Positions 1 through 4,278 of a stretch of DNA of 4,278 nucleotides are shown here, piece after piece. The translations under genes were made by a program, and so were the position numbers. Origin of the DNA: a virus. Its lineage: Duplodnaviria; Heunggongvirae; Uroviricota; Caudoviricetes. The notes under the pieces were generated by a model that worked only from the letters and a program-made list of their open reading frames with translations, made no database searches and was not told where the DNA came from. Numbering within the stretch: the first letter of the stretch is position 1; every line of letters begins with the position of its first letter. The stretch lies in the IMG/VR virus record IMGVR_UViG_2531839104_000018. One strand, given 5' to 3'.

Positions 1-92
1 CCCCGTAACAGCAGTACCGCACACAGCAGCGCTATCATGATCGGTCGCCAGAAGCGGTTCAGACTTTCGGCAAATCGTAGCGACATAACCAT
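1..92 (-). CDS. Probable spanin (Rz-like inner-membrane subunit), 5' end only; runs off the left edge
   Basis: A minus-strand frame opens after a TGA at 95-93, with in-frame ATGs at 92, 86 and 38. Translation is MVMSLRFAESLNRFWRPIMIALLCAVLLLRG, i.e. Arg-rich N-terminus followed by a hydrophobic stretch, as expected for an N-in signal-anchor protein. It overlaps the 3' end of the endolysin gene, as lysis genes often do. True start is ambiguous and only about 30 codons are visible. Confidence 0.35.
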   Translation of the reverse strand, partial: MVMSLRFAESLNRFWRPIMIALLCAVLLLR

Positions 93-559
93 TCATCCGC
101 CGAACGGCGGGCCTCAAGGCCGGGGAGCTTCACCCCCTTTGAATAAATCCAGCGGATATACTGCTTACAGGACGCGGGCATCTGCCCGGCATTGATCAGG
201 CGCAGAAGCGTGGAGTTGCGAAAGTTCGTTTCACCGGCCCAGAAGATCCACGAAGCCAGCGCCACCGTCTGACCACGGGTAAGCGGCACCTGAACACGCC
301 GATCAATGGCCGCAAAGGCCCATTTCATGTCCTTTTCCAGTAGTTCCAGGCATTCTTCATCCGTCAGGGTCATACCCGGTTTCACATCCGGGCCGGTATG
401 GCCGTAACAGATGGTGGGTGTACCGGTGGGATCGATATACGTGGAGTTTTCTTTCCCTTCCCAGTAACCGGTGTAATGCGTGGCAATCGTGAACGTCCCG
501 GCACCGGCCAGAACAAGGGCAATCAGCTTTTTACGCAGTGGTGCGGGGAGTTTTGGCAT
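59..559 (-). CDS. Endolysin, T4-lysozyme-like muramidase (GH24) with N-terminal SAR (signal-anchor-release) domain
   Basis: 166-aa ORF with ATG at 559. Catalytic spacing matches T4 lysozyme E11/D20/T26: E-x8-D-x5-T inside WEGKENSTYIDPTGTPT. N-terminus KKLIALVLAGAGTFTIATHY is a Gly/Ala-rich weakly hydrophobic segment typical of SAR endolysins (P21 R, P1 Lyz, Mu Lys). Motifs CYGHTGPD and AAIDRRVQVPLT resemble Mu-type endolysins as I recall them. Confidence 0.85.
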   Translation of the reverse strand: MPKLPAPLRKKLIALVLAGAGTFTIATHYTGYWEGKENSTYIDPTGTPTICYGHTGPDVKPGMTLTDEECLELLEKDMKWAFAAIDRRVQVPLTRGQTVALASWIFWAGETNFRNSTLLRLINAGQMPASCKQYIRWIYSKGVKLPGLEARRSADEWLCRYDLPKV

Positions 560-560
560 T

Positions 561-598
561 GTTACGCTGTCTCATGATGTTCTCTGAGTCAGCGTAAC
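561..598 (-). promoter_or_regulatory. Dyad symmetry / potential RNA stem-loop abutting the endolysin start codon
   Basis: Perfect 9-bp inverted repeat gttacgctg (561-569) / cagcgtaac (590-598), extendable to 14-bp arms with one mismatch (ctca/tgag) around a 10-nt loop. On the mRNA the 3' arm ends 1 nt before the endolysin AUG, and no clear Shine-Dalgarno is visible. Could be a translational control hairpin or an activator binding site. Confidence 0.4.
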
Positions 599-630
599 GG
601 TGAAGGAAAGGCGGCAGGCTTTGCGGAATA

Positions 631-1056
631 TCAGAAAAGTGGCGGTTGTGTTCTTGCCAGATGCAGACGGCGCTGTTCACGTATGACGGTATAAATCTGG
701 GTTTCTGACATCCGGTAATGGCGGCGAAGGGATTCAATTTTCTCGCCCCGGTCCCAGCGCGAAAATATCTCATTGTTTCGCAGCTCGGCAAAGAGAGATT
801 CCCCGACCGGCAGGTAATAACCCCGTCCGCCCATATAGGCTGCCTGAGCCGCAGCCACCTTGCGTGCCAGTTTGCCGGCCAGTACCGGCTCAATCCCCTG
901 ACGCTGAAGTTCTGCGCCGGTGACTTCAACCAGTTCTGACAGGGTCCGCGGCCAGTTCTTTTTGAGAACATCATCAGGGATGTCATCAAGGCGGTCGATA
1001 AGGGCGTGCAGTTGCTCACTGTCACCACCAAACATGCTCATCTGAGTTTCTGCCAT
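631..1056 (-). CDS. Mor/C-family transcriptional activator (Mu middle/late gene activator family)
   Basis: 141-aa ORF, ATG at 1056 preceded by GGAGG 5-6 nt upstream. C-terminal half AYMGGRGYYLPVGESLFAELRNNEIFSRWDRGEKIESLRRHYRMSETQIYTVIREQRRL matches the recalled Mu Mor signature (GG..Y.P.G..L...R...I...F.G.N..EL...Y.....T.Y..IR..RRL) with a C-terminal HTH. It sits immediately upstream of the endolysin, as C does in Mu. Whether it is the Mor or the C equivalent cannot be decided from sequence alone. Confidence 0.75.
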   Translation of the reverse strand: MAETQMSMFGGDSEQLHALIDRLDDIPDDVLKKNWPRTLSELVEVTGAELQRQGIEPVLAGKLARKVAAAQAAYMGGRGYYLPVGESLFAELRNNEIFSRWDRGEKIESLRRHYRMSETQIYTVIREQRRLHLARTQPPLF

Positions 1057-1087
1057 ATCAGCCTCCGGTTCTCGCGTTCCCGGTAAG

Positions 1088-1121
1088 TTTAAAATAAAAA
1101 TCCCGCGTTGTGGCGGGATTT
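1088..1121 (-). terminator. Rho-independent terminator between the GemA-like gene and the Mor/C-like gene
   Basis: Minus-strand RNA reads AAAUCCCGC-CACAAC-GCGGGAUUU followed by UUAUUUU. This is a perfect 9-bp GC-rich stem (plus strand 1098-1106 / 1113-1121), 6-nt loop and U-rich tail, starting 5 nt after the GemA-like stop codon. Confidence 0.7.
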
Positions 1122-1125
1122 GGGG

Positions 1126-1635
1126 TTAACGGGGAAGTGATTTTTCATACTGCCTGCAAACGGCGTCATACCCCATCAGCGTGCGTTCGGGCATTCCCAT
1201 CGCGGCCAGCATTTTGCGGCGGTGCCATCGCTTGAGACGCTCCAGCACATCTGAGGCCAGGGCGGGGTGTTGCTCCAGCCACTGCCAGTTTGCCACACCT
1301 TCGCCGCCGTTTTGCGCGGCCGTCTGCGATTTCACCCAGCGGTTAAGGGCGGTTTCCGCACCATCAGAGATAAAGCCCTGCCGGTGCATCACCTTCCAGA
1401 TGGCGCGAATTTTAGCGGTCACCGTACCCGGTTTTAAGGCCCGGTTAACCGGGTTCTGACGCACTTTAAAACCGCGTTTTTTGAAAACATCCAGCACGCG
1501 GGATAACTCATCCGGTGACATATCCCGGCAGCTGGTTTTGCCGGTGACCGCCAGTAGTACGGATGTGTAGGTTTCATCATCCAGGGCAAGCTCGCGTTTT
1601 GCCACATGAATGGCAGATATCAGTTTCCCTCTCAT
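1126..1635 (-). CDS. gemA: GemA-like protein (Mu gp16 family, formerly DUF1018)
   Basis: 169-aa ORF. N-terminus LISAIHVAKRELALDDETYTSVLLAVTGKTSCRDMSPDELSRVLDVFKKRGF matches the recalled GemA signature (IHIAK.QLGLDDDTYR.LL...GK.S...M...EL..V...L...GF). ATG at 1635 overlaps the upstream stop as ATGA. Position just upstream of the Mor/C-like gene matches Mu gene order. Assignment is from memory of the family, not from a search. Confidence 0.65.
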   Translation of the reverse strand: MRGKLISAIHVAKRELALDDETYTSVLLAVTGKTSCRDMSPDELSRVLDVFKKRGFKVRQNPVNRALKPGTVTAKIRAIWKVMHRQGFISDGAETALNRWVKSQTAAQNGGEGVANWQWLEQHPALASDVLERLKRWHRRKMLAAMGMPERTLMGYDAVCRQYEKSLPR

Positions 1636-1928
1636 GCTGTATCAACACTCCTGCGGATATGATAGGTATTATTTTCCCGATCGAGCTGAACCCGATACTC
1701 CGGAGGAATCACAAAAATATTAAAACCATCATCAGTTTTTATTCTTGAGTAGCATTCCCCCTTATGATATCTGGCCAGTGCATTAATCAGAGAAGTCGCA
1801 GCCTGCCCAATCAGGTATTTTTTATGAAAAATACTGATAACTTTCCGGCACAGCCATCGTGTAATGACGAATGCACCGAAAAAGGATGTGATATATAAAT
1901 ACCAGAACAACTGCGAACTACTGTCCAT
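1632..1928 (-). CDS. Hypothetical small membrane protein (98 aa), in the low-GC block
   Basis: ATG at 1928 with strong SD AAGGAGA 7 nt upstream. Predicted N-terminal transmembrane helix FWYLYITSFFGAFVITRWL. Stop overlaps the GemA-like start (ATGA). Local GC about 40 percent versus about 60 percent in flanking genes. Confidence 0.5.
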   Translation of the reverse strand: MDSSSQLFWYLYITSFFGAFVITRWLCRKVISIFHKKYLIGQAATSLINALARYHKGECYSRIKTDDGFNIFVIPPEYRVQLDRENNTYHIRRSVDTA

Positions 1929-2115
1929 TATCTTTCTCCTTATTCAGTCTTCTGCGGCATTCGGCACAGTCATCAGGGCTTTCAAATGTATCCGGCTCGC
2001 GATTATGAGCCAGATATAACCACCGTCCACATATACTGATATTTTCGCCTGTTTTAAAAAAATGATGCTTCCTGGCCATTAGTGGCCGCGCCCATCCAGC
2101 GGGTAGACTATTCAT
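1918..2115 (-). CDS. Hypothetical small Cys/His-containing protein (65 aa)
   Basis: ATG at 2115 with strong SD GGAGGA 8 nt upstream. Contains C29, H37 and a C50-x2-C53 pair (ICGRW...DDCAECRRR), which might form a small zinc-binding fold. Overlaps both neighbours by a few codons. Confidence 0.45.
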   Translation of the reverse strand: MNSLPAGWARPLMARKHHFFKTGENISICGRWLYLAHNREPDTFESPDDCAECRRRLNKEKDNGQ

Positions 2116-2443
2116 TTGCTTTATCCTCCATGCTGGACAGAATCATATGTATTAATGTCGGGCGTGGAGATATACGCATTTCATTAAGCGTCTGAAGGGC
2201 AGCAACAGCTGCCTGTTTATCGGTGCCTTTGGCAATTTCAGCAAGAGAATGCACAATCCATAATGGGCTTAACGCTACGGCTGAATGCAGAATCATGTCA
2301 TCCATAATAATTTCTGGCATATCCCGTTTGTCACATTCTTTATCCATAAAAGAAACGATTTTTTCTGCATCTTCCGGTTTCATGCCTCCGGCGATGAGAA
2401 TTTTACGATATTCATAAGACGATCTTAATTCAATACTCATCAT
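2108..2443 (-). CDS. Hypothetical protein (111 aa)
   Basis: ATG at 2443 (second ATG at 2440) preceded by AGGTGA. No recognisable motif. Lies in the low-GC block (about 37-42 percent GC). Confidence 0.5.
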   Translation of the reverse strand: MMSIELRSSYEYRKILIAGGMKPEDAEKIVSFMDKECDKRDMPEIIMDDMILHSAVALSPLWIVHSLAEIAKGTDKQAAVAALQTLNEMRISPRPTLIHMILSSMEDKANE

Positions 2444-2455
2444 TCACCTGCCTGT

Positions 2456-2848
2456 TTAATCAGTTTCCAGTGCTTTGCTACGGGCAACAGCCTCACACTC
2501 AAAAAATACCGACTCCGGCACACGCTCCTTTAATTCACGAACAAGAAAATCATTAACGAGTTCATGACGTCTTATATTTCTTTCCTTTTCCTCCTGGCGC
2601 AATACAGCAAGGCGGTATTCAACAGTCCGGCGTTGTTTCTGAAAGACAGCCAGTGCTTTTCTGGCAGAGTTACGCAATGTATCATCGCCACAGGGTTCGT
2701 ATTCAAGCTGAAATTTAATCTCTTCAATGGTTTCTTTTATTTTTGCCAGCAAGCTAAGACAGTCGCTGATTGTCTTCAGTTTTTCATTATCAATATAACT
2801 TCTCACGCATTCACCTCCCGTCATTCCGGTAAAGCTGAAATATGGCAC
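2456..2848 (-). CDS. Hypothetical charged, probably helical protein (130 aa from GTG 2848, or 122 aa from ATG 2824)
   Basis: GTG at 2848 is preceded by AGGTGA 7 nt upstream. Alternative ATG at 2824 forms an ATGA overlap with the upstream stop. Translation is rich in K/E/R runs (KETIEEIKFQLEYE, LRQEEKERNIRRHE), suggesting helical or coiled-coil character. Confidence 0.5.
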   Translation of the reverse strand: MPYFSFTGMTGGECVRSYIDNEKLKTISDCLSLLAKIKETIEEIKFQLEYEPCGDDTLRNSARKALAVFQKQRRTVEYRLAVLRQEEKERNIRRHELVNDFLVRELKERVPESVFFECEAVARSKALETD

Positions 2849-3132
2849 CAGTGCGTCACCTGTCCGTCCTCATCTTCAAGGCAGGCTCCGGTTTCTTCAT
2901 CAATAAAAAAGCCTTCATACCCCATATGGCCGATGCGCAGTTCCTGTTGGTCACCATACTGAACAATCAGCACGACAGCCTCCATATCAGGCGGGAAAGC
3001 ATCATTCAGTGAATGCCAGGGATAACCGCGCAAATCCCCGAAATAAACACCGGTCAGCGTTCCGCCACAGACCGGCATTCCGACGGCACACACAAGGGGT
3101 TCATCTGATTCAACAAATAATGTCGTTATCAT
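2821..3132 (-). CDS. Hypothetical highly acidic small protein (103 aa)
   Basis: ATG at 3132 overlaps the upstream stop as ATGA. By direct count the translation has 18 Asp+Glu against 2 Arg and no Lys, including the cluster FIDEETGACLEDEDGQ. Net charge is about -16. Confidence 0.55.
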   Translation of the reverse strand: MITTLFVESDEPLVCAVGMPVCGGTLTGVYFGDLRGYPWHSLNDAFPPDMEAVVLIVQYGDQQELRIGHMGYEGFFIDEETGACLEDEDGQVTHWCHISALPE

Positions 3133-3680
3133 GGCATTAATTCCCGTAATACAACATCTTCGGCAGTCCGACGACGGTGATAAATAAAACTCACCGTGCC
3201 CTCGGATAATTCAAATTTCTCGCCGATTTCCCTAAAGGTAAGACGCCGTGGTGATTCAGCATCCCGTAATTCACGAATAAGACGAACATCATCGTCAGGT
3301 ATGCGGGTGAAGGGCAGCAACTCTCCGTATTTTTTCATGCTTACGCCAATATATCGCGCCCGATTGTGGACAGAATCCCGGTCTCGCCCCAGATATTCTC
3401 CTATTTGCTTACCGGTCATTGTTCTGGCATTTTTTCGGATAAATTTATCTTCATCAGGTTTAAATCTGAGGCGTTTGCATTTGAGCAACTCCGGGTAAGT
3501 ACCGCGTAATAAAACAATCCGGTTATGTACACCCCAGAAACTTCTTTTTATCCTGACAGCAATATCCTTAACCGGGGTGGATGGATAAAGCGCAATCAGC
3601 AGCGCATCTTCTTCAGGTGTCCATGCGCGAACATGAGCGGGTGCACGGCCTTTTCTCCCCATGGGTTGTAATATCATCAT
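3129..3680 (-). CDS. Putative DNA-binding protein with tandem Myb/SANT-like HTH repeats (183 aa)
   Basis: ATG at 3680 preceded by GGGGGTGA. Two internal repeats align: WTPEEDALLIALYPSTPVKDIAVRIKRSFWGVHNRIVLL and FKPDEDKFIRKNARTMTGKQIGEYLGRDRDSVHNRARYI, sharing [WF]xP[ED]ED, a central K[DQ]I[AG] and VHNR. A third HTH-like segment is LTFREIGEKFELSEGTVSFIYHRRR. The W-x-PEED pattern resembles Myb/SANT repeats. Confidence 0.55.
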   Translation of the reverse strand: MMILQPMGRKGRAPAHVRAWTPEEDALLIALYPSTPVKDIAVRIKRSFWGVHNRIVLLRGTYPELLKCKRLRFKPDEDKFIRKNARTMTGKQIGEYLGRDRDSVHNRARYIGVSMKKYGELLPFTRIPDDDVRLIRELRDAESPRRLTFREIGEKFELSEGTVSFIYHRRRTAEDVVLRELMP

Positions 3681-3683
3681 GCA

Positions 3684-4028
3684 TCACCCCCTGACTCGCT
3701 TTTCAGCAGCATAAAACTCATCAGACAGAATTTCGGTCATTTTCTGATTTGCGGGTTTTACGCCGCACTCAAGGTAAATCACATCGTCAACGCAGAACCA
3801 CTTCACAGGGCCAAACATGATTGCCGAGAAATCAATACCCAGCCAGAACAACAGTGCATCGGTTCTGGCATACGTGACGGGCGAATATTCACGCCACAGA
3901 CTGTTAAGTTCGTCAGAGGCAACGCGCAGGGCTTTGGGAATACGTGATGTGCGCGGTGTGCAGCTCCAGCCATTCGACGCAGTCGGTTTTCGCCATAAGT
4001 CGCGATGAAAAGGATATTTGTCATCCAT
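3684..4028 (-). CDS. Hypothetical protein (114 aa); its 5' end and RBS lie inside the left arm of the inverted repeat
   Basis: ATG at 4028 with AAGGG about 12 nt upstream. Stop at 3684-3686 lies 3 nt upstream of the next gene start. No recognisable motif. First 24 codons (MDDKYPFHRDLWRKPTASNGWSCT) are exactly duplicated on the plus strand at 4206-4278. Confidence 0.5.
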   Translation of the reverse strand: MDDKYPFHRDLWRKPTASNGWSCTPRTSRIPKALRVASDELNSLWREYSPVTYARTDALLFWLGIDFSAIMFGPVKWFCVDDVIYLECGVKPANQKMTEILSDEFYAAEKRVRG

Positions 4029-4049
4029 AAAGCGCAGCCCTTTAAAACA
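3956..4049. repeat. Left arm of a perfect inverted repeat (at least 94 bp)
   Basis: Checked base by base: position p pairs with 8234-p for every p from 3956 to 4049. First mismatch is 4050 vs 4184. The outer limit is unknown because the partner of 3955 lies beyond the window end. Confidence 0.9.
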
Positions 4050-4184
4050 TCAAACCCTTCCGCGCTGGCCGCGTGGCAAAAATATCAGCAGGACTGCCAG
4101 AAAGTTAAGGATGAGGCAAAACGCCTTGAGGCCGTGCTGAATGTTGCGTGCCGGTCGGTATTTGTATCCGGTATCAGTGGCTTT

Positions 4185-4278
4185 TGTTTTAAAGGGCTGC
4201 GCTTTATGGATGACAAATATCCTTTTCATCGCGACTTATGGCGAAAACCGACTGCGTCGAATGGCTGGAGCTGCACAC
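4185..4278. repeat. Right arm of the inverted repeat; truncated by window end
   Basis: Exact reverse complement of 3956-4049. Arms are separated by a 135-bp non-palindromic core (4050-4184) that has no ORF in the six-frame track. Confidence 0.9.
4206..4278 (+). CDS. 5' end of a plus-strand gene whose first 24 codons mirror those of the 114-aa minus-strand gene; partial
   Basis: ATG at 4206 followed by codons for MDDKYPFHRDLWRKPTASNGWSCT, identical to the N-terminus of ORF 3684-4028, with the same RBS region because both lie inside the repeat. Whether the downstream sequence continues to match is not visible. Confidence 0.4.
   Translation, partial: MDDKYPFHRDLWRKPTASNGWSCT

Follow-up and report, generated by a model that had tools for sequence, protein, structure and literature searches.

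The window, the whole 4,278-nucleotide stretch of DNA that was analysed, matches over bases 1-4049, at 100% identity, Sp18, a Mu-like prophage carried by E. coli O157:H7 and by other STEC. Sp18 is considered an intact prophage (PMC2669165), and prophages of its type are present in about 230 of 5,426 complete E. coli genomes (a few percent), many of them STEC, including O157:H7. The genes follow one another on one strand in the order MuA, MuB, small ORFs, Gam, homologues of gp11 and gp12, a variable slot, GemA and Mor; the lysozyme gene comes immediately after Mor. Prophage identity and gene context thus bear out a preliminary description that had assigned a group of small ORFs to a Mu-like early operon. 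A scan of the window against Rfam detected no RNA family. The features of the slot and its surroundings are:

1126..1635, minus strand: gp16/GemA gene (Pfam GemA, E=2e-30), the conserved left flank of the slot
1632..1928, minus strand: ORF98, 98 aa, basic (pI 9.4), with a 4-nt overlap between its stop and the GemA start
1918..2115, minus strand: ORF65, 65 aa, located between ORF111 and ORF98
2108..2443, minus strand: ORF111, acidic (pI 5.2) and predicted to be all-helical, the semi-conserved anchor gene of the slot
2195..2221, minus strand: 27-nt island within ORF111, GATAAACAGGCAGCTGTTGCTGCCCTT, encoding DKQAAVAAL
2456..2806, minus strand: ORF116, 116 aa, GTG start as in RefSeq, GC 0.416, the fourth AT-rich gene
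2821-3132, minus strand: ORF103, right-hand neighbour, GC 0.50
3129-3680, minus strand: gene for a SANT/Myb-like DNA-binding protein of 183 aa, right-hand neighbour, GC 0.46

The three ORFs named in the preliminary description exist as minus-strand frames of 98 aa (1632-1928), 65 aa (1918-2115) and 111 aa (2108-2443), and a Shine-Dalgarno-like site precedes each of them (AAGGAG for ORF98, GGAGGA for ORF65 and AGGTGA for ORF111); in RefSeq the last of these starts at 2440, which gives a protein of 110 aa. The low-GC block that had been reported with them is also real, with a GC content of 0.418 over 1640-2450 against 0.557 over 1-1639 and values of 0.30-0.50 in individual 60-nt stretches, but its extent has to be redrawn. 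The proposed right edge at 2450 is wrong, since 2451-2820 has a GC content of 0.427 and about 0.50 is reached only from 2821 on, and the count of three genes was too low, as the gene at 2456-2806 (116 aa, GC 0.416) forms part of the same valley. The valley therefore contains four genes over 1632-2806 and has a GC content of about 0.42, against 0.56 in GemA, Mor and lysozyme. The 63-65% GC once given for the GemA and lysozyme genes does not hold either: each has 0.563 overall, and 0.63-0.68 is attained only in local 60-nt peaks. At the GemA/ORF98 junction the step is sharp, from 0.563 to 0.404. The codon-usage check agrees, with a GC3 of 0.35-0.41 in the ORFs against 0.56-0.64 in lysozyme, Mor and GemA, meaning that the shift is present at the codon level. 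Windows of 1175 nt with the GC of the valley belong to the lowest 0.3% of windows over the prophage, and slot composition (GC 0.40-0.46) deviates from that of the whole prophage (0.536).

Packing, signals and selection

The genes are tightly packed: neighbours either overlap (-4, -11 and -8 nt) or are separated by 14-15 nt. A promoter scan of the block found 5 sites against 5.2 expected from shuffled sequence, hence no excess, although this crude scan covers consensus sigma-70 sites only and weak or non-sigma-70 promoters would escape it, so that the genes may still be expressed in the lysogen. No terminator was found at either block edge, the sole strong one lying after gp16, between GemA and Mor. 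Because they overlap or nearly abut and show no promoter or terminator of their own, the four genes read as part of the lytic operon, which favours early-operon membership over a strict moron. The moron-like cassette of the preliminary description thus loses its footing, given genes that overlap by 4-11 nt, promoter sites at the shuffled level and no promoter or terminator found for the block in the scans.

Among natural alleles, pN/pS is 0.12 for ORF65, 0.17 for ORF111 and 0.14 for ORF116, compared with 0.13 for Mor and 0.29 for GemA. ORF98 differs by allele: allele b has a value of 0.16, whereas allele a, the type present in the window, has 0.94 with few substitutions. These small genes are genuine and maintained by selection, which is clearly purifying in ORF65, ORF111, ORF116 and ORF98 allele b. 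Allele a is near neutral, which could be a sign of relaxed constraint and not of an arms race. The papers searched on Sp18 and the Mu semi-essential region yielded no transcript, protein or gene-level expression data for these ORFs and, with DUF2513 and Mu anti-defence included, no functional data on them.

Variable content and exchange junctions

That the block is accessory agrees with the comparison among relatives, in which Mor and gp16 occur in 231 E. coli genomes and most of 1640-2820 in 118 of the 231; the GemA gene itself is found in every E. coli genome with an Sp18-type prophage (231/231). All four AT-rich genes are absent from two relatives (L010 and L011), which indirectly indicates that the set may be dispensable. 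At least five slot architectures exist within E. coli, among them the full four-gene set, orf61, a reverse-strand DUF2513 gene, a combination of 95-aa and 79-aa genes, and swaps of the ORF98 allele. The flanks are retained in almost every long-enough locus, including relatives without the four AT-rich genes: to one side lie GemA and Mor, to the other ORF103, the SANT/Myb-like gene and the homologues of gp12 and gp11. The exceptions are the L003/L004 type, where ORF103 is replaced, the SfMu type, which has neither ORF103 nor the SANT/Myb gene, and the distant loci L046 and L061. In the L003/L004-type relatives a 61-aa ORF takes the place of ORF116 and ORF103. Both ORF103, which is 81% identical in a Citrobacter-type lineage, and the SANT/Myb-like gene are more broadly conserved than the four AT-rich genes.

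The alternative cargos of the slot are all AT-rich (0.39-0.47), Mu gp13 and gp14 included. Among the surveyed loci no relative has the slot flanks directly adjacent, and the slot always holds some cargo; a scan of species-representative genomes yielded one locus only, in Citrobacter braakii. Conserved flanks, differing gene content and deviant composition, three of the attributes of an accessory region, are all found here. The earlier proposal of a horizontally acquired cassette survives in part: ORF65 and ORF116 do occur in unrelated phages, but the genes did not arrive as one block, their histories being different.

The cargo appears to be bounded by two junctions. One comprises the first ~8 gemA codons (about 1612-1635); variants that carry a different cargo cease to match at the DNA level at ~1611. 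The other is the 27-nt island, where identity across three lineages amounts to 76-83% (in 30-nt windows) against 30-56% on either side. Between L005 and the window, identity falls from ~90% to ~36% just past the island, and the BLAST breakpoint lies at query position 557, which corresponds to window position 2196. Beyond about codon 82, the ORF111 tail varies according to which cargo lies downstream. The cargo between ORF111 and GemA is evidently exchanged at the island and at the gemA 5' end. Since the most conserved peptide of ORF111 is encoded in the island as well, protein constraint may account for part of the nucleotide conservation there.

Proteins of the slot

Homologues of ORF111 with 32-43% identity are located one to three genes upstream of GemA in SfMu-, Citrobacter- and Sp18-type enterobacterial phages. 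They lie below the GC of their flanks elsewhere too (0.437 vs 0.53-0.54 in SfMu; 0.489 vs 0.53-0.55 in L012), and genes of this type are common without ORF98, as in the SfMu-type and DUF2513 variants. The AlphaFold2 model of ORF111 is of low confidence (pLDDT 54) and too poor for a fold search, and a PDB search with the protein gave chance-level matches only (Art22, E 0.06, domain i-E 0.9).

ORF98 carries the N-terminal hydrophobic segment that had been reported for the 98-aa protein. Its predicted topology is N-out/C-in, which by the positive-inside rule places the soluble domain in the cytoplasm. The C-terminal domain comes in two alleles, a and b, which share 50% nucleotide identity over residues 37-98 and reassort independently of the flanking genes. 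The protein is very rare, with 6 matches in 1.84 billion representatives and one true distant relative (P0040); two further candidates from this exhaustive search (P0039 and P0041) were discarded as spurious, being repeat proteins. A search of phage records found no match except its other allele. In the loci seen, ORF98-type genes always have an ORF111-type gene just upstream, and in L012-L015, a lineage whose GemA is only 64% identical, the homologues of ORF111 and ORF98 are adjacent with a 4-nt overlap. The linkage of the two genes is known from two independent lineages only.

ORF65 has a far wider distribution. Relatives were found in 185 phage records as well as in lambdoid prophages and a Mu-like prophage of Salmonella, and the family extends to virulent Pseudomonas PB1-like phages and adjoins GemA in another Mu-like lineage. 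The alignment, from which P0015-P0017 were omitted because they look like frameshifted copies, confirms the Cys/His content noted earlier: residues G7, W8, P11, H18, C29, W32, C50 and C53 are invariant, and H18, C29, C50 and C53 remain so from E. coli to the homologues in Pseudomonas phages. In the AlphaFold2 model (pLDDT 78) the C-terminal helix (residues 51-63) starts at the C50-x2-C53 pair, so that four invariant candidate ligands and, in the model, a Cys-x2-Cys at a helix start are present as in a zinc ribbon or treble clef. A Cys3His metal site is therefore predicted and is probable. A PDB search with ORF65 gave chance-level matches only (BPTI, E 0.07, through its cysteine pattern). The early protein gp12 of the PB1-like phage 14-1, considered as a possible homologue, was rejected as a 310-aa DUF6011 protein, and no ORF65 homologue was found in the gp12 region of that phage.

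ORF116 corresponds to phrog_6158 and has relatives of about 40% identity in Escherichia phage Fraca and Aeromonas phage AsXd-1. The four proteins fall into PHROGs families 17269, 2358, 1988 and 6158, none of which has a known function. Pfam and NCBIfam at curated cut-offs gave no match to any of the four AT-rich gene products, PADLOC gave a single non-significant match (ORF111, E 0.035), and sequence searches of the PDB, with single proteins and with profiles, and fold searches found no functional match to slot proteins. The role in host takeover, exclusion or anti-defence put forward in the preliminary description stays a suggestion, the library, profile and fold searches having returned no functional match.

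Interpretation and comparison with known accessory regions

The stretch 1632-2806 is likely to be an AT-rich hypervariable accessory region in the early (semi-essential) operon of an intact Sp18-type Mu-like prophage. A region of this sort is an ordinary, known kind of phage feature. The slot lies between the Mu gp11/gp12 homologues with the SANT/Myb-like gene and the GemA-Mor pair, and its content is composite, with three histories represented by ORF111, ORF98 and ORF65. ORF111 is the long-standing occupant of the slot and its anchor in three lineages of phages; ORF98 is a rare membrane-anchored partner, found directly after ORF111 in its sole known distant relative; and ORF65 a promiscuous small His/Cys3 protein lying between the two. 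Expression would occur only when the early promoter fires, upon infection or induction, alongside transposase and Gam. We infer that the four genes are dispensable lytic-phase helpers that bind components of the host or of competitors, and that they do not protect the lysogen. ORF65 might bind, as a metal-stabilised protein, a target that is conserved among gamma-proteobacteria, and ORF111 and ORF98 might work jointly on the cytoplasmic side of the inner membrane. By analogy with other phage accessory regions, an early-expressed role in host takeover or counter-defence is suggested for the slot genes.

Two other readings explain the block by its origin or by its expression in the lysogen. A true moron or lysogenic-conversion cassette, transcribed on its own in the repressed prophage and protecting the lysogen, for example with ORF98 as a membrane protein for superinfection exclusion, would account for the atypical composition, for presence and absence among relatives, and for a short membrane-anchored protein whose two alleles have diverged; in Mu-like phages of Pseudomonas, small genes of the early region can exclude other phages (PMC9936078). 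It is nevertheless improbable, since all genes are co-directional with the early operon and overlap their neighbours, promoter-like sites show no excess, no terminator flanks the block, the soluble domain of ORF98 faces the cytoplasm by the positive-inside rule, and no similarity to PADLOC or Pfam families was found. The candidates for autonomous expression in the slot of relatives are instead the reverse-strand genes (DUF2513, SfMu16-like). Acquisition of the whole block in a single recent event from an AT-rich donor, whose origin the GC would record, is very unlikely: the sharp step from 0.563 to 0.404 at GemA/ORF98 and the very narrow taxonomic ranges of ORF98 and ORF111 in large databases suit it, but the genes differ in distribution and history, ORF111 homologues hold the same position in other lineages with GC below their flanks there too, every alternative cargo is AT-rich, including Mu gp13 and gp14, and ORF98 alleles reassort independently of the flanks.

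The remaining alternatives concern the genes themselves. ORF111 and ORF98 might form a self-contained module, either toxin/antidote-like or a membrane effector with its regulator, that could either set off cell death at the membrane or prevent it, leaving ORF65 as an unrelated passenger. The adjacency of their homologues with a 4-nt overlap in a lineage with a GemA only 64% identical, the consistent presence of an ORF111-type gene immediately upstream of the ORF98-type genes seen, and the opposite charges of the two proteins (pI 5.2 vs 9.4) all point this way; yet the pairing is backed by two independent lineages only, ORF111-type genes are common without ORF98, ORF65 splits the pair in Sp18, and no match to toxin-antitoxin or defence profiles was found, so this reading is possible though unlikely. 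A non-coding AT-rich spacer in which the ORFs arose by chance would fit their shortness and their want of family annotation, but such a reading is extremely improbable and already contradicted by the conservation data: the frames are intact in all loci examined, ORF65, ORF111 and ORF116 have a pN/pS of 0.12-0.17, protein homologues at 32-70% identity exist in other genera and phage types, and Shine-Dalgarno sites and coupled stops and starts are present throughout.

A bolder combination than the accessory region alone is a tentative and rather doubtful proposal, namely that ORF111 and ORF98 constitute an unrecognised two-protein module of enterobacterial Mu-like phages, that ORF65 is a widespread His/Cys3 metal-binding host-takeover factor, and that the island is a dedicated recombination anchor. 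The module may consist of a soluble acidic helical protein and a membrane-tethered cytoplasmic domain with deeply diverged, freely reassorting alleles, and it may act at the inner membrane against a variable target, for instance a defence system of the host or a rival phage. The ORF65 factor may serve temperate Mu-like and lambdoid phages and virulent Pseudomonas phages alike.

Phage accessory regions have been a repeated source of counter-defence and host-takeover gene discoveries, and mapping this slot turns a vague group of AT-rich ORFs without known function into a short list of testable candidates. The map comprises the anchor (ORF111), mobile cargo (ORF65, ORF98, ORF116, DUF2513 and PF04447), the exchange junction and the selection acting on the genes; in itself it does not change knowledge of Mu-like phages.

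One close counterpart is the semi-essential region of Mu, where gp13, gp14 and Mu_54 lie between gp12 and gemA, in the same position, with the same flanks and in the early operon. The GC dip of the Mu slot reaches 0.455-0.475 against 0.55. Mu itself has none of ORF98, ORF65, ORF111 and ORF116, whereas SfMu and Yersinia Mu-like phages have an ORF111 homologue. Sp18 further differs from Mu in that Mor leads directly to the lysozyme gene and a strong terminator is located between GemA and Mor.

Mu-like phages of P. aeruginosa possess regions of genomic plasticity, including the nin-like RGP C and the low-GC anti-CRISPR RGP G (Cazares et al., 2014, PMC4378225). As in those regions, the slot holds variable, short, packed genes with no known function between core genes whose order is kept, and it forms a GC valley. 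The phage group is however a different one, with no sequences in common, and the anti-CRISPR region lies in the head-gene area, in contrast to the Sp18 slot in the early operon directly upstream of GemA. A PADLOC scan of the slot proteins found no anti-CRISPR or other counter-defence homology. Unlike the Pseudomonas regions, the slot has a conserved anchor that can be named, ORF111, and a junction defined to 27 nt.

Accessory regions of enterobacterial phages have been surveyed, and the Mu early gene E6/Mup07 was designated gnarl2 (Silas et al., 2023, bioRxiv 10.1101/2023.04.06.535777). Here too the resemblance consists in a fast-turnover hotspot of small genes with deviant GC between conserved genes, and gnarl2 is a small gene of the Mu semi-essential early region with an experimentally assigned host-directed role. 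It maps upstream of gam, outside the window; the survey covers cultured phage genomes only, without prophages, and no slot protein is linked to its hits.

Lambdoid morons (defined by Hendrix/Juhala, summarised in PMC4378225) are likewise extra DNA that is present in some relatives and differs in composition from its neighbours. In contrast to them, the slot shows no promoter or terminator of its own, and its genes form part of the early lytic operon, to which their translation is coupled. Lambdoid phages also carry relatives of ORF65 (58-65% identical) in early accessory strings of the nin type and of the exo-xis/ead type, which differ from the Sp18 slot in phage architecture and regulation. 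The small zinc protein ea8.5 of lambda, encoded after ea22, is a positional analogue of ORF65; sequence and fold searches against solved structures gave no ea8.5-type match for ORF65. In two lambdoid loci the ORF65 relative lies directly downstream of an Ead/Ea22-like gene, and PF04447 and Lar genes belong to the same lambdoid accessory pool.

Identity of the prophage and position of the slot

Over positions 1-4049 the window matches, at 100% identity, a chromosomal region present in many genomes of E. coli O157:H7 and other STEC (exact identity was confirmed in NZ_CP022050.2). Pfam and RefSeq annotation agree on a Mu-like prophage reading on the minus strand, which in strain Sakai is named Sp18 and was judged intact (PMC2669165).

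Gene order of the prophage (minus strand; RefSeq/Pfam)
5' part: transposase A, AAA+ B protein, several small ORFs, Gam, three ~175-aa proteins
Continued: SANT/Myb-like DNA-binding protein, five small hypothetical proteins, gp16/GemA
3' part, after GemA: Mor, lysozyme, then lysis and head genes

Two of the three ~175-aa proteins are clearly homologous to Mu gp11 and gp12 and, together with the gene order, this makes the slot, a swappable stretch of accessory genes just upstream of gemA, the counterpart of the Mu semi-essential early region. In Mu, the corresponding stretch just before gemA holds gp13, gp14 and "Mu_54". At the right end, window 4050-4278 is the exact reverse complement of the genome positions matching window 3956-4184; this fold-back creates a perfect 94-nt inverted repeat (3956-4049/4185-4278), truncates the 171-aa gp12 homologue, and most likely reflects a chimera from assembly or library construction, not biology.

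Composition, gene packing and selection

The stretch 1632-2806 is a hypervariable accessory region within the early lytic operon, and contains the following genes:

1632-1928, minus strand, ORF98
1918-2115, minus strand, ORF65
2108-2443, minus strand, ORF111
2456-2806, minus strand, ORF116

The preliminary description had confined the low-GC block to 1640-2450. The dip itself is present (GC 0.418, vs 0.557 in 1-1639), but its right edge does not hold, since 2451-2820 is at 0.427 and the 116-aa gene at 0.416; the compositional block is 1632-2806, with four genes. GC3 is 0.35-0.41 in the ORFs vs 0.56-0.64 in lysozyme, Mor and GemA, and the GemA and lysozyme genes, credited earlier with 63-65% GC, are each at 0.563 overall. 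In sliding windows over ~23 kb of prophage the stretch falls in the lowest 0.3% by GC, the repressor/ner control region being the only other one equally AT-rich. A reading of this valley as the timestamp of one recent acquisition was rejected because all the alternative cargos (exchangeable genes) of the slot are AT-rich: the DUF2513 gene (0.387-0.425), the 95-aa (0.41) and 79-aa (0.44) ORFs, orf61 (0.387), and Mu gp13 and gp14 (0.455-0.475), for comparison with 0.55-0.57 in GemA. The low GC is a lasting feature of the slot itself and of the pool of genes that supplies it.

The three ORFs first described (98, 65 and 111 aa) each have a Shine-Dalgarno site as claimed. The 98-aa protein does begin with a hydrophobic stretch, and the 65-aa protein does contain Cys and His residues; in RefSeq the third ORF begins one codon further in (110 aa). 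From the gp12 homologue through GemA, nine of nine genes are co-directional. The stop of ORF98 overlaps the GemA start by 4 nt, that of ORF65 the ORF98 start by 11 nt, and that of ORF111 the ORF65 start by 8 nt, while the other gaps measure 14-15 nt. A consensus scan found no excess of promoter-like sites (5 vs 5.2 expected from shuffles), and the single strong terminator lies 3' of GemA (1121-1098). As read from the sequence, the four small genes are arranged as parts of the early lytic operon with coupled translation, and this arrangement predicts their co-expression with it. The moron label proposed earlier is not supported: the genes are tightly packed, promoter-like sites are no more frequent than in shuffles, and the scan found no terminator of their own. 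A lysogen-protecting exclusion role is less likely, because the slot genes show no expression signals of their own. From position and precedent, the products would instead be made on infection or induction, as dispensable helpers that would bind host or rival components. Pseudomonas Mu-like phages have low-GC plastic regions, including an anti-CRISPR region (PMC4378225), and enterobacterial phages have accessory regions, among which Mu E6 is assigned as gnarl2 (bioRxiv 10.1101/2023.04.06.535777); the present region is a better-defined example of an already known phage feature, and of modest interest. The slot proteins gave no match in Pfam, NCBIfam, PADLOC or PDB, and their PHROGs families are all labelled unknown function.

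No gene-level expression data were found in the published literature, and selection was therefore gauged from natural alleles at 60-odd loci. The pN/pS is 0.12 for ORF65, 0.17 for ORF111 and 0.14 for ORF116, for comparison with 0.13 for Mor and 0.29 for GemA; ORF98 gives 0.16 for allele b and, on very few substitutions, 0.94 for allele a (the window's type). The slot genes are maintained by selection, and these values exclude their reading as chance ORFs.

GemA and Mor are separated by 69 nt, and the strong terminator-like hairpin falls there:

1098-1121, minus strand, intrinsic-terminator-like hairpin, AAATCCCGCCACAACGCGGGATTT then T-run

In Mu, by contrast, gemA and mor overlap. Because of this hairpin, Mor may need read-through or a separate promoter.

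Layouts of the slot and swap junctions

Layouts were surveyed in representative loci and by local tblastn of 49 IMG/VR contigs and E. coli and Citrobacter loci.

Layouts from the SANT/Myb-like gene to GemA (h, homologue)
Window's own: ORF103-ORF116-ORF111-ORF65-ORF98 (allele a or b)
orf61-ORF111-ORF65-ORF98
ORF103-ORF116-ORF111 (altered tail), then DUF2513 gene on reverse strand
ORF103, 95-aa ORF, reverse-strand 79-aa ORF; none of the four AT-rich genes
Citrobacter type (distant): ORF103h, PF04447 pyrophosphohydrolase, ORF111h, ORF98h, 88-aa ORF
Citrobacter type, alternative: ORF111h, then reverse-strand DUF2513
SfMu/Yersinia type (distant): gp13, ORF111h, gp14, reverse-strand ORF
SfMu/Yersinia type, alternative: gp13, ORF111h, reverse-strand DUF2513

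Mor and gp16 occur at a coverage of at least 80% in 231 E. coli genomes, vs 118 with at least 80% of 1640-2820. Whether the block is an indel among related prophages had been raised as a check; its presence does vary, but not as a single unit. The accessory, horizontally mobile reading is supported by the differing layouts and by relatives of ORF65 and ORF116 in other phages.

ORF111 is an old, semi-conserved resident of the slot: in each of the three lineages its homologues (32-43% identity) are invariably found 1-3 genes upstream of GemA, and their GC is below that of the flanks (SfMu, 0.437 vs 0.53-0.54; Citrobacter-type L012, 0.489 vs 0.53-0.55). Mu differs in having none. The C-terminal tail varies with the downstream gene, and the ORF contains a short island that marks one swap junction:

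2195-2221, minus strand, 27-nt island, GATAAACAGGCAGCTGTTGCTGCCCTT, encoding DKQAAVAAL

Its identity is 76-83% in 30-nt windows across the three lineages, with 30-56% in adjoining windows. In the DUF2513 variant of the window's own lineage, identity falls from ~90% to ~36% immediately after it, and one BLAST breakpoint maps to the island (query position 557, window 2196). The second swap junction is placed within the first ~8 codons of gemA, since variant matches end at window ~1611. A direct repeat of 22 nt (86% identity, ...GTGAAGGGCAGCAAC) may be chance; one copy overlaps the island (2185-2206) and the other falls inside the SANT/Myb-like gene (3300-3321). The ORF111 protein (pI 5.2) is predicted to be all-helical, in an unreliable model (pLDDT 54).

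The reverse-strand DUF2513 gene directly upstream of GemA (loci L005 2065-2475, L016 5277-5732, L055-L060, L064 and L065) occurs in three separate Mu-like lineages (E. coli Sp18, Citrobacter and SfMu types). It runs antisense to the early operon, and as an autonomously expressed, moron-like gene it is a stronger candidate than the ORFs first described; a literature search found no function for DUF2513. In Mu (AF083977, ~7945-8160, reverse strand), an ORF nearly identical to annotated SfMu_16 (88 aa, MENNVQPYDVAGYAIASALV...) lies where the GenBank record has the forward-strand "Mu_54", and the 79-aa ORF of E. coli loci L010 and L011, in the same place, is related to it. PF04447, a dATP/dGTP pyrophosphohydrolase (formerly DUF550), is slot cargo in the Citrobacter-type lineage (L012 4735-5682, L014 2624-3700) and also accompanies an ORF65 relative in a Citrobacter lambdoid-type string (L069 4889-5488), which points to a common accessory-gene pool.

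Separate histories of the slot genes

The single cassette described earlier breaks up, in that ORF111, ORF98 and ORF65 have three different histories. ORF65 is the promiscuous member. Its DNA has matches of 60-80% identity in 237 E. coli records, relatives align at 58-65% in Salmonella, Citrobacter, Buttiauxella and Trabulsiella, and tblastn hit 185 phage records, the majority from virulent, PB1-like Pseudomonas phages. The Salmonella relative overlaps GemA from directly upstream in a different Mu-like prophage. In Citrobacter and Trabulsiella the relatives are part of early accessory gene strings in lambdoid-type elements, where Ead/Ea22-like, Lar and PF04447 genes are their neighbours. ORF116 has ~40% relatives in the unrelated phages Fraca and Aeromonas AsXd-1. 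An ORF65 paralogue (~70% DNA identity) lies in a lambdoid prophage of E. coli 2012C-4606:

L006 3990-4178, minus strand, ORF65 paralogue, 50 aa in RefSeq (WP_001375713.1)

If translation begins at an in-frame GTG, the ORF is 62 aa long and regains the family-invariant GWARP motif; the annotated start is therefore probably too short. In two different lambdoid-type prophages an Ead/Ea22-like gene (L006 4175-4531, L070 3603-4001) has an ORF65 relative immediately downstream and overlapping, a recurring gene pair. In lambda, ea8.5, which encodes a small zinc protein, follows ea22 likewise; searches with ORF65 detected no sequence or fold similarity to solved structures. Several ORF65-related entries (P0015-P0017) have the first ~22 residues in common, diverge completely thereafter, and look like frameshifted or pseudogenised copies.

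ORF98 is nearly an orphan, with six clusters in a search of 5.8 billion sequences and no match in phage records other than the alternate allele. Searching 1.84 billion representatives with a profile yielded six matches, only one of them a genuine distant relative (P0040, 101 aa, 40% identity), which has an N-terminal anchor as ORF98 does and the same core motif, C-x-RIK-x2-DG-x-N-x-FV-x2-P-x-YRV. Its gene lies in Citrobacter-type Mu-like prophages directly 3' of the ORF111 homologue (4-nt overlap), which suggests that ORF111 and ORF98 are a linked pair, split by ORF65 in the Sp18 type. Alleles a and b reassort without regard to their flanks, which are otherwise identical (L028 vs L030), and their C-terminal halves share 50% nucleotide identity with synonymous sites saturated, which indicates old alleles shuffled by recombination. 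In the protein (pI 9.4), the hydrophobic N-terminal segment is preceded by no positive charge and followed by several, and the positive-inside rule would place the soluble domain on the cytoplasmic side.
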